Positions 9,268 through 55,120 of a stretch of 64,000 nucleotides of DNA are shown in pieces. A program made the translations under genes and the position numbers. This DNA is from Escherichia phage Es2. The notes beneath the pieces are model-generated. The model was not told the origin of the DNA. It ran no database searches and saw only the letters and a program-made list of their open reading frames with translations. The stretch lies in the sequence record OR515477.1. One strand, 5' to 3'. Numbering within the stretch: position 1 is the stretch's first letter; each line of letters starts with the position of its first letter.

Positions 9268-9966
9268 ATGAGGATTATTTCTAAGTTCGCCGATGTGTAT
9301 GATTTGCAGAACAGTTTGTTTGACCCAGATCGTGTGTGGGAACGTAAAACTGAGGAGTTACTGGTTAAAGTAACCGATGATGCAGAAAAGAACATTGTGC
9401 ATACTCGCCAGGTATTTCGTGATGGTTCGCTATCTTTCCGTGGTGATTTCGAATACTTTGTAAACCCACTATTTGTTGCAGGTGAAGTTTACTGGTTACA
9501 CGAGCTGTACTGCTGGCATCCAGCATTTAGCTTCAAAACGTTCAACCTCGACACTATGTTCGATAAAATGGAAGAGATGGGATTGCATGCTCGCTCTTAC
9601 TTAATGGATAAGAGTCGCGGAGATGTTCGTGAAACAATGCGTGATTTGCTCGCTGAAGCAAAACCTAAAGCAGAACGTATCTTATCCGAACTGCGTGTAC
9701 CGATTGCATATGTGAAAGGTATTAAGAAGAACGATAACGATGATGTTCGTAACTTCGTGATTCAGACTAACATTCGTTTCCATCAGTCAGGTATTCCGTG
9801 GCAGGAAATTGAAAGTAACTTATACCGTTTACACCAAGTTCTCGAACAGTATATCTTCGGTGTACTAGGAACTGGTGAGCCTGATATGATTAAAGTATCA
9901 GATAAAGACAGGTTAGCAGCGCATGGATTTGATACAAAAACTTCTTTCAGGAATATGGCAAGGTAA
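9268..9966 (+). CDS. hypothetical early protein
   Basis: Track ORF 232 aa. Confidence 0.65.
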   Translation: MRIISKFADVYDLQNSLFDPDRVWERKTEELLVKVTDDAEKNIVHTRQVFRDGSLSFRGDFEYFVNPLFVAGEVYWLHELYCWHPAFSFKTFNLDTMFDKMEEMGLHARSYLMDKSRGDVRETMRDLLAEAKPKAERILSELRVPIAYVKGIKKNDNDDVRNFVIQTNIRFHQSGIPWQEIESNLYRLHQVLEQYIFGVLGTGEPDMIKVSDKDRLAAHGFDTKTSFRNMAR

Positions 9967-10656: not shown

Positions 10657-11408
10657 TGTCAGTATTAGTCGGTTTACATGGTGAAGCTGGTTCGGGAAAA
10701 GATACCGTTGCAAAATTAATTATCGATTGGTGTAATGACACGTATCCAACGTGTTTATCCCGTCGTTATAGTTTTGCTAAGCCCGTTTATGAACTTGCAT
10801 CCGTAATCCTCGGTGTAACTCCAGAGTTTCTAGGAGAGCGCAGAGGAAAAGAGATTGCTCAATGGTTTACGGTCACACAATCTCAATTGGAGCGAGCTAG
10901 AGATGTGTGGTTTAAATACGGTATCGATAAGTTTGAAGACTTCTCGTACGTTTGGCCTATTTTTGAGGAAAAATATCTTAATCCTCAACAACTTATCTCA
11001 GAGAATAAAGAAGACGGACTTTATAGTTTATTTATTTCTCCGAGAAAAATGTTACAGCTCGTAGGGACAGAGCTAGGAAGGCAGCTGGTGCATGAACGCA
11101 TTTGGCTCATAATTCTGGAGCAATCCATCGCTAAAGACGACCCAGACGTCGCCGTAATAACAGATGTTAGATTCCCCAATGAAGGAGAGCTACTCAGAGA
11201 AACAAACCATTTAGATATGGATTCTTTGATAGTAAATGTAGTACCCGCTGAGCAGAAGTTTACTATTAAATCAGATCATCCATCTGAAAGTGGTATTCCT
11301 GCAAAATATATTACTCACGAATTAGTTAATAAATTCGATGGTATCAATAACCTTAAACTAGAAGTTTATAACTTCTGTGACTTAGAGCTAGAACCACTAG
11401 TTGGATAA
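10656..11408 (+). CDS. dnk: deoxynucleoside monophosphate kinase
   Basis: 250 aa; P-loop GEAGSGKDT; size matches my recollection of the T5 enzyme. Confidence 0.75.
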   Translation: MSVLVGLHGEAGSGKDTVAKLIIDWCNDTYPTCLSRRYSFAKPVYELASVILGVTPEFLGERRGKEIAQWFTVTQSQLERARDVWFKYGIDKFEDFSYVWPIFEEKYLNPQQLISENKEDGLYSLFISPRKMLQLVGTELGRQLVHERIWLIILEQSIAKDDPDVAVITDVRFPNEGELLRETNHLDMDSLIVNVVPAEQKFTIKSDHPSESGIPAKYITHELVNKFDGINNLKLEVYNFCDLELEPLVG

Positions 11409-23643: not shown

Positions 23644-23667
23644 AAAGCGCAGGGCAATTGCCCTGCG
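23644..23667. repeat. perfect 24-bp palindrome AGCGCAGGGCAATTGCCCTGCGCT
   Basis: Read directly; centred on CAATTG, immediately after the last 15-bp repeat. Confidence 0.85.
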
Positions 23668-23880
23668 CTAAATGAGAATAAAAATAAGAATCATTCTCAT
23701 TTAGAAAGCGGAATGAGAATGATAATAATTCGCATTTAGAAAGCGAAATGAGAATCAATCTCATTTAAGAACGGAAACGAAAATTATTCAGGAAGTGAAA
23801 CGATTCTCATTTAGAAAGTGGAATGATTCTCATTTAGAAAGTGGAATGCAAATGATAATGATTCGCATTTAAGAATGGAA
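23668..23880. repeat. degenerate repeat family TCATTTAGAAAG(C/T)GGAATGA(T/G)
   Basis: At least six related copies with internal dyads (GAATGATTCTCATTC-like); a further copy at 24207-24232. Confidence 0.7.
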
Positions 23881-36713: not shown

Positions 36714-37196
36714 ATGGCAAATGATGTACTAGTACCAGATCTTATGTCCCCTGAAGGGATGGATGTGATTGAAGCTTATTTACAGTGCGGCAGCGATGTG
36801 CCTTCTGCCGCACGTAGTCTTGGAATGTCCGAAATTGCTTTCCGAGATATTATGAATCGTAGTGAAGTTAAGAACTACTTAAATGATATTTTTATGGAGA
36901 GTGGTTTCCGTAATAGGGATCGTTTATTTGGTGTTCTAGATGAAGTTATTAAACGTAAGCTAGAGGAGCTAGAAGAAACTGGCATGGGTTCTGACCAAGA
37001 TATTATGGATATTCTCTGGAAAGCACATAAAATGAAAATGGAAGAAATGAAGATGATGGTAGAGTTGGAAAAAGCTAAAGCTGCTGTCCGTGCTCCTGCT
37101 AATCAGACCAATATTCAGAATAACATTATTGCTGGAGCTGGGGATCAAAACTACATGGATTTAATTACTTCCCTAGCTACTGGAGGTAAAAAGTAA
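36714..37196 (+). CDS. terminase small subunit
   Basis: 160 aa, directly upstream of and overlapping the large terminase gene. Confidence 0.7.
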
Positions 37197-38512
37197 TGGA
37201 AGTATCAAGACCCTATGTTAATACAGTAGACGTTATTGACTTCGGAATAGATAAACGTTTCTTCCGTCTACCTGTTTCAGGAATACTAGCACAAGAGGGT
37301 ATTACACCTAATGGTCCTCAAATAGCAATTATTAATGCACTAGAAGACCCTAGACATCGTTTTGTAACAGCGTGTGTGTCACGTCGTGTAGGCAAATCCT
37401 TCATCGCATACACACTTGGGTTTCTAAAATTGCTGGAACCCAATGTGAAGGTGTTAGTAGTTGCCCCTAACTATTCACTGGCTAATATTGGTTGGTCACA
37501 GATTCGTGGTCTTATCAAGAAATATGGGCTACAAACAGAACGTGAGAACGCTAAGGATAAAGAGATTGAGTTAGCTAATGGTTCTCTATTTAAACTAGCT
37601 TCTGCAGCGCAGGCTGACTCCGCAGTTGGACGTTCATATGACTTTATCATTTTTGACGAAGCTGCAATTTCTGATGTAGGTGGTGATGCTTTTAGAGTTC
37701 AGTTGCGACCTACTCTGGATAAGCCTAATTCTAAGGCTCTGTTTATCTCTACTCCTCGTGGTGGTAACTGGTTTAAAGAGTTTTATGCCTACGGATTTGA
37801 TGATACGCTACCTAACTGGGTATCTATTCATGGTACATATCGTGATAACCCTCGTGCCGACCTGAATGACATTGAGGAAGCACGTCGTACTGTTAGTAAA
37901 AACTACTTCCGCCAGGAATATGAGGCTGATTTCTCTGTATTCGAAGGACAGATCTTTGATACCTTTAACGCTATCGATCATGTTAAAGACCTCAAAGGTA
38001 TGCGTCACTTCTTTAAAGATGATGAAGCATTCGAAACATTACTTGGTATTGACGTTGGTTATCGTGATCCTACGGCAGTTCTTACTATTAAATATCATTA
38101 CGATACAGATACTTACTATGTATTAGAAGAGTACCAGCAGGCGGAGAAAACTACAGCTCAACATGCCGCTTATATTCAGCACTGTATAGATCGTTATAAT
38201 GTAGATCGTATCTTTGTTGACTCTGCAGCAGCTCAGTTCCGTCAGGACTTAGCTTATGAACATGAAATTGCATCAGCTCCAGCTAAAAAGTCTGTCCTAG
38301 ATGGCCTAGCATGTTTGCAAGCGCTATTCCAACAGGGTAAGATTATTGTAGATGCTTCATGTTCCTCCCTAATTCATGCATTGCAGAATTATAAGTGGGA
38401 CTTCCAAGAAGGCGAAGAGAAATTATCACGTGAAAAACCACGTCATGATGCTAACTCTCACCTTTGTGATGCACTGCGCTATGGAATTTACTCTATTTCC
38501 CGTGGTAAATAA
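37196..38512 (+). CDS. terminase large subunit
   Basis: 438 aa; Walker A-like RRVGKS and Walker B DFIIFDEA. Confidence 0.85.
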   Translation: MEVSRPYVNTVDVIDFGIDKRFFRLPVSGILAQEGITPNGPQIAIINALEDPRHRFVTACVSRRVGKSFIAYTLGFLKLLEPNVKVLVVAPNYSLANIGWSQIRGLIKKYGLQTERENAKDKEIELANGSLFKLASAAQADSAVGRSYDFIIFDEAAISDVGGDAFRVQLRPTLDKPNSKALFISTPRGGNWFKEFYAYGFDDTLPNWVSIHGTYRDNPRADLNDIEEARRTVSKNYFRQEYEADFSVFEGQIFDTFNAIDHVKDLKGMRHFFKDDEAFETLLGIDVGYRDPTAVLTIKYHYDTDTYYVLEEYQQAEKTTAQHAAYIQHCIDRYNVDRIFVDSAAAQFRQDLAYEHEIASAPAKKSVLDGLACLQALFQQGKIIVDASCSSLIHALQNYKWDFQEGEEKLSREKPRHDANSHLCDALRYGIYSISRGK

Positions 38513-38626
38513 ATAAGTATAGGATGGGATACTACTCAGTTGGTATCCCATTCCTGCATTTTAAAATCCCCTTTACAAATTCGATACGATTATGTATACT
38601 ATATTCATACAGTTGAGGAGAACACT

Positions 38627-39064
38627 ATGGCAAGCAATATAAAATATAAACGCGATGCTATATCCCTTATGAGAGACGGAATAAAAAGTCAATATAAAAA
38701 AGACTCTCAATGTGCTATCTGCGGTTGTGCTGAAGAATTAGAGCTTCATCATTACCATACGGTGTCTCTACTAGTTAAAAAATTTGCTAAAGAACTCCAA
38801 TTGGATTTCACTGACGAAGAAACAGTCCTCTCAAATAGGACGGCATTCTATGATCGATATAGGCATGAGCTAGTAGAAGACACTGTTACCCTTTGTGTAC
38901 ACCATCACCAATTATTACATAAGGTTTACACAAAAGAACCTCCTTTATTTTCTGCTAATAAGCAAAAAGTGTGGGTTCAAAAGCAGAAAGACAAATTACA
39001 GAATCCTCAAGAAAAGACACAAGTCAAGACTGAAACAAAATCAGGATTCGCAAGGTTCTTATAA
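38627..39064 (+). CDS. HNH endonuclease
   Basis: Track ORF 38540..39064 trimmed to ATG at 38627 with GAGGAG RBS; CAICGC...HHYH...CVHHHQLLH. Confidence 0.65.
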   Translation: MASNIKYKRDAISLMRDGIKSQYKKDSQCAICGCAEELELHHYHTVSLLVKKFAKELQLDFTDEETVLSNRTAFYDRYRHELVEDTVTLCVHHHQLLHKVYTKEPPLFSANKQKVWVQKQKDKLQNPQEKTQVKTETKSGFARFL

Positions 39065-40275
39065 TGGGTTTTAAAAGCTGGATTACTGAAAAGCTAAATC
39101 CGGGTCAACGTATTATAAGAGACATGGAACCAGTTAGTCACCGCACTAACCGTAAGCCTTTTACCACTGGACAAGCCTATAGCAAGATTGAGATTCTCAA
39201 TCGAACTGCCAATATGGTTATAGATAGTGCGGCGGAGTGTTCTTATACTGTCGGAGATAAATATAATATTGTCACGTATGCCAATGGCATCAAGGCAAAG
39301 ACTCTAGACACTCTCTTAAATGTACGACCTAATCCATTCATGGATATAAGCACATTCCGTAGACTTGTAGTCACTGACCTACTTTTTGAAGGTTGTGCGT
39401 ACATCTATTGGGATGGCACAGCACTTTATCATGTCCCTGCTGCACTAATGCAAGTAGAGGCAGATGCCAATAAGTTTATCAAAAAATTTATATTTAATAA
39501 CCAGATAGACTATCGCGTAGATGAGATTATCTTTATAAAGGATAACAGTTACGTGTGTGGCACAAATTCTCAAATTTCTGGACAATCTCGTGTTGCCACT
39601 GTTATTGATTCTCTTGAGAAGCGTTCTAAGATGCTTAACTTTAAAGAGAAGTTCCTCGATAACGGAACCGTGATTGGTCTTATTCTTGAGACGGATGAAA
39701 TCCTGAACAAGAAATTGCGTGAGCGTAAACAAGAAGAATTACAACTAGATTATAATCCTAGTACTGGTCAGTCCTCTGTCCTGATTCTAGATGGTGGTAT
39801 GAAAGCTAAACCGTACTCCCAAATATCCTCTTTTAAAGATCTAGACTTTAAGGAAGACATTGAAGGATTTAATAAATCTATCTGTCTAGCCTTTGGTGTT
39901 CCGCAAGTGCTACTTGATGGTGGTAATAACGCGAACATTCGACCAAACATCGAACTGTTCTATTACATGACTATCATTCCTATGCTGAACAAACTGACTA
40001 GTTCTCTAACTTTCTTTTTTGGTTATAAGATCACTCCTAATACAAAGGAAGTCGCAGCATTAACACCAGATAAAGAAGCAGAGGCTAAACATTTAACCTC
40101 ATTGGTTAATAATGGTATTATAACCGGTAACGAAGCTCGTTCAGAGCTGAACCTGGACCCTTTAGATGATGAGCAGATGAATAAGATTCGTATTCCTGCT
40201 AACGTCGCTGGTTCCGCAACAGGTGTATCTGGTCAAGAAGGTGGCAGACCCAAAGGTTCCACCGAGGGAGATTAA
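39064..40275 (+). CDS. portal protein
   Basis: 403 aa; position between terminase and protease. Confidence 0.8.
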   Translation: MGFKSWITEKLNPGQRIIRDMEPVSHRTNRKPFTTGQAYSKIEILNRTANMVIDSAAECSYTVGDKYNIVTYANGIKAKTLDTLLNVRPNPFMDISTFRRLVVTDLLFEGCAYIYWDGTALYHVPAALMQVEADANKFIKKFIFNNQIDYRVDEIIFIKDNSYVCGTNSQISGQSRVATVIDSLEKRSKMLNFKEKFLDNGTVIGLILETDEILNKKLRERKQEELQLDYNPSTGQSSVLILDGGMKAKPYSQISSFKDLDFKEDIEGFNKSICLAFGVPQVLLDGGNNANIRPNIELFYYMTIIPMLNKLTSSLTFFFGYKITPNTKEVAALTPDKEAEAKHLTSLVNNGIITGNEARSELNLDPLDDEQMNKIRIPANVAGSATGVSGQEGGRPKGSTEGD

Positions 40276-52274: not shown

Positions 52275-55120
52275 AAAAAATACTAGATAGTGCTAGAAAC
52301 TACTTAAAAAATAATAGCAGAATAAAAACTGCTAGTCTAATTTCTTTAGAATTACCTGGCTCTACTGGTACTAGTACTGCTTTTATTTACTTAACTGACT
52401 ATTTTAGAGATGTACTATATAATGGTATTTTGTACCAGGCCGGTAAAGTTAAGTCTATTAGCACACATAAACAAAATAGAGATTTATCTATTGGCAGCCT
52501 ATCTTTTACTATTACAGGTACAGCGCAGGATGAAGTACTGAAATTAGTGCAGAATGGTGTATCTTTTTTAGACAGATTAGTATCAATTCACCAAGCAATT
52601 ATTACAGAAGATGGTTCTATTTTATCTGTAGACCCAGACACAAATGGGCCTTTATTATACTTTAGAGGTAGAATTACTGGTGGAGGTATTAAGGATAATA
52701 TTAGCACTTCGGGAGTTGGAACCTCCACAATTACTTGGAATTGTTCTAACCAATTCTATGATTTTGATAGGGTTAATGGTAGATTTACTGATGATGCTTC
52801 TCATAGAGGGCTTGAAGTTGTAGCAGGACAATTACTTCCATCTAACGGGGCTAAAAGACTTGAGTACCAAGAAGACTACGGTTTCTTTCATGCCAATAAA
52901 AGTATCTCTATTCTAGCAAAGTATCAGGTACAGGAAGAAAGATACAAACTAAAGTCTAAGAAAAAGCTATTTGGACTATCTAGAAGTTATAGTCTTAAAA
53001 AGTATTATGAGACTGTTACTAAAGAAGTAGATATAGATTTTAACCTTGCTGCTAAGTATATACCAGTAGTTTATGGTGTACAGAAAATACCAGGAATACC
53101 TATTTTTGCGGATACGGAATTACATAATCCTAACATAGTTTATGTAGTATATGCTTTTGCTGAAGGAGAGATAGACGGTTTTCTTGACTTTTCCTTTGGG
53201 GATAACCCTATGATTTGTATGGACTCTAATGATAGCTCCGCTAGAACCTGCTTTGGTACTAAAAAAGTGGCTGGGGACACCATGCAAAGAATAGCGTCAG
53301 GAACACCTTCTAGTAGTCCTTCCGTTCATGGGCAGGAGTATAAGTATAATGATGGTAATGGTGACATAAGAATTTGGACGTATCATGGAAAACCTGACCA
53401 AACGGCTTCTGAAGTACTAGTAGATATAGCTAAAGAACGTGGGTTCTACCTTCAGAATATGAATGGCAATGGACCGGAGTATTGGGATGCTAGGTATAAA
53501 CTACTAGATACTGCATACGCAGTGGTGCGCTTCACTATTAATGAAAATAGGACTGAGATTCCTGAAGTTAGTGCTGAAATTCAAGGTAAAAAAGTAAAAG
53601 TCTATCATTCTGATGGTAGAGTAACTGCTAATAGTACTAGTTTAAATGGTATTTGGCAAACACTTGATTACTTAACCTCTGATAGATATGGCGCTAATAT
53701 TACCCTTGATCAGTTCCCTCTTCAGCAACTAATACAGGAAGCAGCTATTTTAGATATTATAGATGAATCCTATCAGGTATCTTGGCAGCCGTATTGGAGA
53801 TACGTTGGGTGGACTGATCCACTAGCAGAAAATAGACAAATAGTACAAATGAATACTATTCTGGATACATCTGAATCAGTATTTAAAAATGTGCAAGGTT
53901 TATTAGAGTCCTACGGTGGGGCTATTAACAATTTATCTGGCCAGTATAGAGTTACTGTAGAAAAATACTCTAATACTCCGCTAGAGATTAATTTTCTAGA
54001 TACTTACGGTGATTTGGAGCTATCAGATACTACTGGTAGAAATAAATTCAATTCAGTTCAAGCATCTATCGTAGATCCCGCCCTTAGTTGGAAAACTAAT
54101 TCCATTACATTCTATAATTCCAAGTATAAGGAACAGGACAAGAACCTAGATAAAAAATTACAACTGTCTTTTGCTAATATTACTAATTATTATACTGCAA
54201 GAAGTTTTGCTGATAGGGAGCTTAAGAAATCCAGATACTCAAGAACACTCTCTTTCTCATTACCATATCAATTCATTGGTATTGAACCTAATGATGCTAT
54301 TGCATTTACATACGACCGTTATGGGTGGGATAAGAAGTATTTCCTAGTAGACGAAGTGGAAAACTCTAGGGAAGGAAAAATAAATGTTACCCTACAGGAA
54401 TATGGAGAAGATGTATTTATCAATTCTGAGCAGGTTGATAATAGCGGTAATGATATTCCTGATATTAGTAATAATGTCCTTCCTCCTAGAGACTTTAAAT
54501 ATACTCCTACTCCTGGCGGTTTAGTAGGCTCTATAGGTAAAAATGGTGAGTTATCTTGGCTTCCGAGTCTAACCAATAATGTAGTCTATTACTCTATCGT
54601 GCATTCCGGTCATGCTGAACCTTATATTGTGCAGCAACTAGAAACAAATCCCAACGAACGGATGATCCAAGAGATAATTGGAGAGTCTGCAGGTTTAGCA
54701 ATATTTGAAATAAGGGCTGTGGATATAAACGGTAGAAGAAGTTCTCCAGTAACATTATCTATAGAACTTAACTCTGCTAAAAACCTAAGTGTAGTATCTA
54801 ATTTTAGGGTAACTAATACGGCTTCTGGGGATGTAACTGAGTTTGTAGGCCCAGATGTAAAACTAGCTTGGGATAGAATACCAGAAGAAGATATAATAGA
54901 GAGTATATTCTATACTCTGGAGATCTATGATTCCCAGAATAGAATGCTAAGAAGTGTACGTATTGAAAATCAGTATACTTATGACTATTTATTAACGTAT
55001 AATAAGGCAGATTTTGCTCTTCATAACAGTGATGCTCTAGGAATCAATAGAAAACTATATTTTCGTATTAGAGCAGAAGGAGATGATGGAGAACAGTCTG
55101 TGGAGTGGGCATCCATTTAA
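52271..55120 (+). CDS. baseplate hub protein (pb3-like)
   Basis: 949 aa; position and size. Confidence 0.8.
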   Translation: MKKILDSARNYLKNNSRIKTASLISLELPGSTGTSTAFIYLTDYFRDVLYNGILYQAGKVKSISTHKQNRDLSIGSLSFTITGTAQDEVLKLVQNGVSFLDRLVSIHQAIITEDGSILSVDPDTNGPLLYFRGRITGGGIKDNISTSGVGTSTITWNCSNQFYDFDRVNGRFTDDASHRGLEVVAGQLLPSNGAKRLEYQEDYGFFHANKSISILAKYQVQEERYKLKSKKKLFGLSRSYSLKKYYETVTKEVDIDFNLAAKYIPVVYGVQKIPGIPIFADTELHNPNIVYVVYAFAEGEIDGFLDFSFGDNPMICMDSNDSSARTCFGTKKVAGDTMQRIASGTPSSSPSVHGQEYKYNDGNGDIRIWTYHGKPDQTASEVLVDIAKERGFYLQNMNGNGPEYWDARYKLLDTAYAVVRFTINENRTEIPEVSAEIQGKKVKVYHSDGRVTANSTSLNGIWQTLDYLTSDRYGANITLDQFPLQQLIQEAAILDIIDESYQVSWQPYWRYVGWTDPLAENRQIVQMNTILDTSESVFKNVQGLLESYGGAINNLSGQYRVTVEKYSNTPLEINFLDTYGDLELSDTTGRNKFNSVQASIVDPALSWKTNSITFYNSKYKEQDKNLDKKLQLSFANITNYYTARSFADRELKKSRYSRTLSFSLPYQFIGIEPNDAIAFTYDRYGWDKKYFLVDEVENSREGKINVTLQEYGEDVFINSEQVDNSGNDIPDISNNVLPPRDFKYTPTPGGLVGSIGKNGELSWLPSLTNNVVYYSIVHSGHAEPYIVQQLETNPNERMIQEIIGESAGLAIFEIRAVDINGRRSSPVTLSIELNSAKNLSVVSNFRVTNTASGDVTEFVGPDVKLAWDRIPEEDIIESIFYTLEIYDSQNRMLRSVRIENQYTYDYLLTYNKADFALHNSDALGINRKLYFRIRAEGDDGEQSVEWASI

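Follow-up and report, generated by a model that had tools for sequence, protein, structure and literature searches.

The 145-residue protein encoded between the large terminase and portal genes of Escherichia phage Es2 is very probably the ortholog of SciA of phage T5, the nuclease of the single-strand interruptions of T5-type virion DNA. The analysis covered a window of 64,000 nucleotides of sequence record OR515477.1, in which the gene and its immediate neighbours are arranged as follows:

36714-37196, + strand: small terminase subunit gene terS (phrog_3802, 1.2e-90)
37196-38512, + strand: large terminase subunit gene terL, the upstream neighbour (Pfam Terminase_6N/6C)
38627-39064, + strand: sciA ortholog, encoding a 145-aa predicted site-specific nicking endonuclease with a divergent HNH / beta-beta-alpha-metal core
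39064-40275, + strand: portal protein gene, the downstream neighbour (Pfam Phage_portal, 3.4e-50)

The initial annotation of this DNA had described a Cys/His-rich open reading frame at 38627-39064 between terL and the portal gene, and this description is confirmed by the coordinates and by the flanking Pfam matches. The ATG at 38627 is preceded by a good ribosome-binding site (GAGGAG, 7 nt upstream), and the last base of the TAA stop codon, at 39064, is shared with the portal ATG. In the mechanical list of open reading frames, the sciA frame reaches back to a TTG at 38540; the start was placed at 38627 instead, because all homologs and the crystallised T5 protein begin at the methionine of MA(S/T)N. 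The frame is not a chance one: with tblastn, sciA was detected in 899 phage records (best E-value 7e-83).

Megablast analysis of the segment 37196-40275 retrieved 463 phage records, nearly all of them Tequintavirus or Epseptimavirus, at 90-96% identity, and the source phage is T5-like (Demerecviridae). The window has the orientation of the reverse complement of T5 and represents a circularly permuted assembly, in which the long terminal repeat is collapsed to one copy. Its positions ~10.8 kb, ~23.6 kb and ~38.6 kb correspond to 22.3 kb, 9.7 kb and 105.7 kb of T5, and the gene order passes from the early region (~10.8 kb) to the terminal repeat (~23.6 kb), with the late genes after it.

A phmmer search against all PDB chains matched the Es2 protein to 9qgv_A and 9qgx_A, both named 'Nicking endonuclease', at an E-value of 5.5e-80, with residues 1-145 aligned to residues 4-148. 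According to the titles obtained through Foldseek, these entries (9QGV/9QGX, released 2026-03-25) represent T5 SciA bound to GCGC-containing DNA duplexes, namely SciA(H42Q) with a 10 bp DNA, 'GCGC sequence 2', and SciA(H42A) with 'GCGC sequence 1'. The crystallised chain is identical to T5.153 (AY543070 105346-105783) save for residue 42, which is Q or A, while the Es2 protein shares 81-83% identity with T5.153 over its full length. A profile search of the PDB returned no entries beyond the two SciA structures.

The names given to the family elsewhere point in the same direction. The Es2 protein matches phrog_3497 at 1.3e-69, its UniRef cluster (99%-identical) is named 'Nicking endonuclease', and the gene is designated 'sciA: nicking site-specific endonuclease' in the GenBank records of DT57C, DT571/2 and Gostya9, which come from groups working on T5, and 'nicking endonuclease' in many others. 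The gene at the same position in Erwinia phage Key has also been named nicking endonuclease (PMC10194208). Precomputed PF26848.1 assignments are present on all 114 homologs; PF26848 is evidently newer than the Pfam-A copy that we searched, where the scan gave no match even at E<=1.

The T5 protein (T5.153 / T5p149 / ORF142) and its Es2 counterpart are both 145 aa long, carry His42 and the same Cys/His set, are predicted to adopt the same fold (TM 0.97 for the model), and are encoded at the same position before the portal gene in genomes with the same nick-site sequences. Approximately 25 substitutions separate them, none of which is located at an invariant position. The T5 enzyme has already been identified, named and crystallised, and the Es2 gene is a close ortholog and, in this sense, already known. 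The initial annotation had proposed that an HNH nickase might produce the nicks of T5-type virion DNA, and this suggestion was right: it is established for the T5 ortholog through the titles of 9QGV/9QGX and the GenBank sciA names. For Es2, the nickase function is a prediction drawn from PDB titles, database names and genetic work of 1979-84 that is cited second-hand; our literature searches returned no biochemical or structural paper on SciA, on nicking by the purified protein, or on 9QGV/9QGX.

Among phage genomes, sciA is distributed as expected of a core gene of the family, syntenic and passed on vertically. T5-type terL is present in 907 records, compared to the 899 for sciA (~99% co-occurrence, at the same position), and the sciA/terL counts per host genus are 356/356 for Vibrio, 129/129 for Escherichia, 81/81 for Klebsiella and 267/271 for Salmonella. 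The position between terL and the portal gene was seen in the window, TUMS_E3, DT57C, T5 and Vibrio phage Ceto, and the order terS-terL-sciA-portal is retained as far as the last of these, in which the protein is ~55% identical. Two database entries with sciA-like sequence were also considered. The 46-kb 'phage' MET_P1-197_46 (59% identity) was rejected as a new genomic context, being a fragmented Epseptimavirus assembly. The other, P0114, is encoded on a 351-nt contig and labelled 'PhoH family protein, partial [Enterococcus faecalis]' (117 aa); it joins SciA residues 6-68 (78% identity) to a PhoH fragment and is probably a read of T5-like phage origin, either chimeric or a contaminant.

This distribution bears on the possibility, also raised in the initial annotation, that the gene is a free-standing homing endonuclease, i.e. 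a selfish mobile gene that cuts genomes which do not contain it. The idea has some appeal, as the ORF is small and HNH-like and the phage family is rich in HNH homing genes (T5 hegA-J); the gap between terL and sciA is, moreover, a real insertion hot-spot. However, the comparison of presence and absence across relatives, which the annotation had put forward as a check, gave the near-complete co-occurrence reported above, always at the same locus, and not a sporadic pattern. In the Vibrio phages, sciA identity (~52%) is matched by that of terL (~51-59%), a divergence of the same order, and the predicted targets are conserved and belong to the genome of the phage itself. What comes and goes at this locus is another gene, T5.154, missing from Es2 and degraded in DT57C. 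A homing role for sciA is thus not supported, and we consider it extremely improbable.

The spacer between terL and sciA (38513-38626; 114 nt) is nearly unchanged across the window, TUMS_E3, DT57C and T5, and contains two elements:

38522-38553, + strand: strong terminator-like hairpin (13-bp stem, T-rich tail; dG -20.7 kcal/mol, z -4.0), which sets terL apart from sciA
38572-38600, + strand: promoter-like element TTTACA-17-TATACT, directly upstream of sciA, whose function is a putative one

The hairpin is kept in T5-like relatives, and the sequence of the promoter-like element is invariant in T5, DT57C and TUMS_E3. An Rfam scan of 38300-39200 gave no match. Between terL and sciA, T5 carries the 834-bp endonuclease gene T5.154 ('T5orf172' / putative homing endonuclease), whose insertion point lies just after the promoter-like element, at about position 38609 of the window; the window presents an empty site there, and DT57C a degraded remnant of ~400 bp.

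Turning to the protein itself, the Cys/His strings of the Es2 product are C29-A-I-C32-G-C34, H41-H42-Y-H44 and H92-H93-H94-Q-L-L-H98. All of the motifs quoted in the initial annotation are therefore present. C29, C32, H41, H42, C90, H94 and H98 are invariant in 35 diverse homologs down to 41% identity and H93 is ~90% conserved in the same set, whereas C34, H44 and H92 vary within the family. The resulting signature, CxxC...HH...CxxHH...H, includes two putative zinc pairs, C29-x2-C32 and C90-x2-H93.

The AlphaFold model of the Es2 protein (pLDDT 86), for which the alignment left out the T5 row, places a strand at residues 38-42, ending in H41-H42, a helical insert at 46-84, a second strand at 86-90 and a helix at 91-101 that bears H94 and H98. 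The modelled topology is that of the beta-beta-alpha-metal fold, as in HNH/His-Me nucleases, with the beta strands separated by an unusually long helical insert of ~43 residues. Searching 1.84 billion representative proteins with the family profile yielded 171 relatives only. The most distant full-length relatives (P0251, P0256, P0257 and P0260) possess the same insert together with a textbook CxxC...HH...N..TLCxxCHxxxH arrangement, in which the second Cys of CxxCH aligns with H93 of the Es2 protein, and these distant relatives give sub-threshold matches to PF01844/PF13391 (E about 0.003). Pfam-A and NCBIfam scans of the Es2 protein itself gave nothing at E<=1, while PHROG HNH families match it at 6e-6 and 0.005. 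Membership of the HNH superfamily is hence well supported by motif and topology, and weakly by curated models and fold searches. The HNH-type nuclease of the initial annotation stands in substance, on the signature, the modelled topology and the better of the two PHROG matches, although no Pfam HNH model matches the protein.

The Asn of the distant relatives (N-E-N-x-T-L-C) aligns with E84/T86 of SciA, where no Asn is conserved. Many His-Me subfamilies replace the central Asn of H-N-H, and the absence of this residue from SciA is, for that reason, compatible with HNH membership. The same feature, together with the weak similarity to active HNH enzymes, may be read as a sign that the protein has lost catalysis and has become a GCGC-binding or zinc-finger protein, which would mark sites, e.g. 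for packaging or as an injection stop, and leave the nicking to another enzyme. Against this reading, H41/H42, H94 and H98 are invariant family-wide, the PDB entry is named an endonuclease, and the depositors mutated H42 to obtain DNA complexes, a change which would be the usual way of trapping an active nuclease. We hold such a loss of catalysis to be highly unlikely. In an active SciA, H42 would act as the general base, a role suggested by the mutation of this residue to trap the DNA complexes; the catalytic metal would be held by H98, possibly with H94, and a structural zinc by C29, C32, C90 and H93.

The probable targets of SciA can be traced in the genomes of T5 and Es2 (in the sequences below, a slash marks the nick, except within parentheses, where it separates alternative bases). 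The T5 record AY543070 contains five major single-chain interruptions, all on the minus strand, at 9748/9, 22336/7, 39746/7, 78573/4 and 121279/80; it notes 5'-N-Pu/pGCGC-N as the nick consensus, with the major nicks at 5'-Pu/pGCGC(A/G)GG on one strand. R/GCGCRGG is given as the T5 nick consensus in PMC3517423. Extraction of the sequence contexts of the five major nicks gave A/GCGCAGGG for four and G/GCGCGGGC for the remaining one. The 8-mer AGCGCAGG has four copies in complete T5, each of them on the nicked strand and coinciding with an annotated major nick, while RGCGCRGG is found six times on the nicked strand and five times on the other, in agreement with a remark in PMC3517423. Plain GCGC, which is palindromic, occurs 199 times in T5 and 81 times in the window. 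Judged from these sequences, the GCGC core is necessary yet far from sufficient for the choice of nick, and the asymmetric flanks may explain much, though not all, of strand choice. In the window, RGCGCRGG occurs seven times against 2.4 expected, a mild enrichment (1 of 100 shuffles reaches 7). Because the motif is only mildly enriched and not strictly strand-specific, it was not used alone for site prediction; homology with the T5 sites gave two predicted targets:

10837-10845, + strand: predicted SciA target AGCGCAGAG, nick predicted at 10837/10838, homologous to the T5 dnk-gene site
23646-23654, + strand: predicted SciA target AGCGCAGGG, nick predicted at 23646/23647, homologous to the T5 terminal-repeat site

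The T5 counterparts of the 23646/23647 site are AY543070 9748/9749 and 121279/121280, in the terminal repeat, and the 25-nt core TTTGCACAAAA/GCGCAGGGCAATTG is identical to T5. The counterpart of the 10837/10838 site is AY543070 22336/22337, inside dnk; here, TTTCTAGGAGA/GCGCAGAGG has a single mismatch to T5, G to A at the seventh base after the nick. Both of the T5 major sites that fall within the span of the window are thus conserved, on the + strand as expected; T5 sites 39746 and 78573 belong to regions beyond the window and so have no counterpart in it. Furthermore, the terminal-repeat site and its 5' flank, TGTCGGATT(T/C)GCACA(A/T)AA, are kept in Tequintavirus, Epseptimavirus and a Klebsiella Sugarlandvirus.

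The terminal-repeat nick site of Es2 has an additional property, in that 23646-23669 is a perfect 24-nt palindrome (AGCGCAGGGCAATTGCCCTGCGCT), so that each strand carries the full 8-mer of the T5 major site, AGCGCAGG, the two copies being 22 nt apart. The same arrangement is seen in S130 and mar004NP2, whereas T5 (…CCCTGCTCGCC) and the Epseptimaviruses do not possess the second GCGC. Nicking of both strands at 23646-23669, should it occur, would produce a staggered double-strand break near the region of the injection stop. The + strand of the window has exact matches to AGCGCAGG at two more places, 37606-37613 (in terL) and 52522-52529. The T5 sequence at the place of the terL site is GGCGCAGG (T5 107524), the only RGCGCRGG of the nicked strand outside the annotated major nicks; the 52522 site is not conserved in T5. 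These two sites are candidates for extra or minor nicks.

HK97 gp74 is the product of an HNH-like gene that likewise neighbours the terminase and portal genes; it enhances the cleavage of cos, and packaging depends on it. The location of the Es2 gene directly between terL and the portal gene, and the HNH-like signature of its product, invite the reading that it is a terminase-associated protein of this type, which would stimulate concatemer cutting and be required for packaging, and assistance to the terminase had been one of the roles envisaged in the initial annotation. A further hint at a link between nicking and packaging is provided by the neighbouring terS, which is labelled 'probable sciB protein' in DT57C and 'putative SciB protein' in Spc35 (two GenBank records); sciB is described in PMC3517423 as a second locus affecting T5 nicking or nick frequency. 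On annotation only, an identity of terS with SciB would link this second nick-frequency locus with the packaging enzyme; we found no published basis for the assignment. The gp74-type reading is countered, however, by the absence from the Es2 protein of a match to the Pfam HNH model PF01844, the type of gp74-like proteins, which places the two in different families by sequence, and by the T5 ortholog being crystallised on GCGC duplexes and named a nicking endonuclease. In addition, T5 has fixed long terminal repeats and not cos ends, and viable nick-less T5 sci mutants have been isolated, according to PMC3517423, so that the protein would not be required for packaging. A terminase-helper role is consequently not supported, and we regard it as very unlikely.

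A looser connection with packaging, in which the protein remains the SciA nickase, is suggested by its C-terminal end. Residues ~126-145 (window 39002-39061) comprise a variable linker, modelled with low confidence, followed by a GFARFL end, the tail being disordered in the model. Among 110 full-length homologs, 89 carry GF[AGS][KR]F[LI] at the extreme C-terminus by a strict pattern and 104 by a looser one; the peptide is duplicated in 11 homologs, and some Vibrio-phage forms have SL(D/S)xFKV in its place. The crystal chains resolve 119-121 of 148 residues, and the C-terminal peptide is not among them. By its conservation, the peptide looks like a docking motif for some partner. One may speculate, though we find this rather doubtful, that it tethers SciA to the packaging machinery (terminase or portal), that the enzyme nicks DNA while the latter is threaded into the head, and that the direction of translocation co-decides on which strand the palindromic GCGC core is nicked. 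If true, such tethering would account for three observations: the RGCGCRGG sites of the opposite strand escape major nicking, nick frequency shifts with a mutation linked to terS, and sciA lies between terL and the portal gene.

SciA also stands apart from other nicking systems. No significant sequence similarity was found with N.phiGamma or the Gme HNH nickase (PDB 4H9D), which are of the terminase-associated or Pfam HNH type, and SciA differs from them in its ~43-residue insert, in CxxHH in place of CxxCH and in having no conserved Asn. The Pseudomonas phages phiKMV/phikF77 and tf/LUZ24 resemble T5 in their strand- and sequence-specific virion-DNA nicks, which are repaired early and reappear late in infection (PMC3517423); their nick consensus sequences are different, namely CGACxxxxxCCTA/CTCCGG and TACTGTGAC. 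For the 899 tblastn matches, the ten commonest organism names include no Pseudomonas phage.

For the SciA nickase, the following course of action may be proposed. Both sciA and sciB map to the T5 late region, according to PMC3517423. Late in infection, the enzyme would recognise the GCGC core with its asymmetric flanks, A/GCGCAGG, and would cut that strand only, the predicted substrate being a duplex that carries AAAAGCGCAGGGC or TTTGCACAAAAGCGCAGGGCAATTG. The product would be a ligatable 3'-OH/5'-P nick, expected in Es2 at + strand 23646/23647 and 10837/10838, among others, and the phage NAD-dependent ligase would reseal the nicks after injection.

Nicks of the T5 type have been on record since the 1960s. 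The finding in Es2 opens no new question; it adds the correct annotation of the gene and a prediction of two nick positions. Two small details, the symmetry of the terminal-repeat site and the conservation of the C-terminal peptide, could bear on how the strand to be nicked is chosen.
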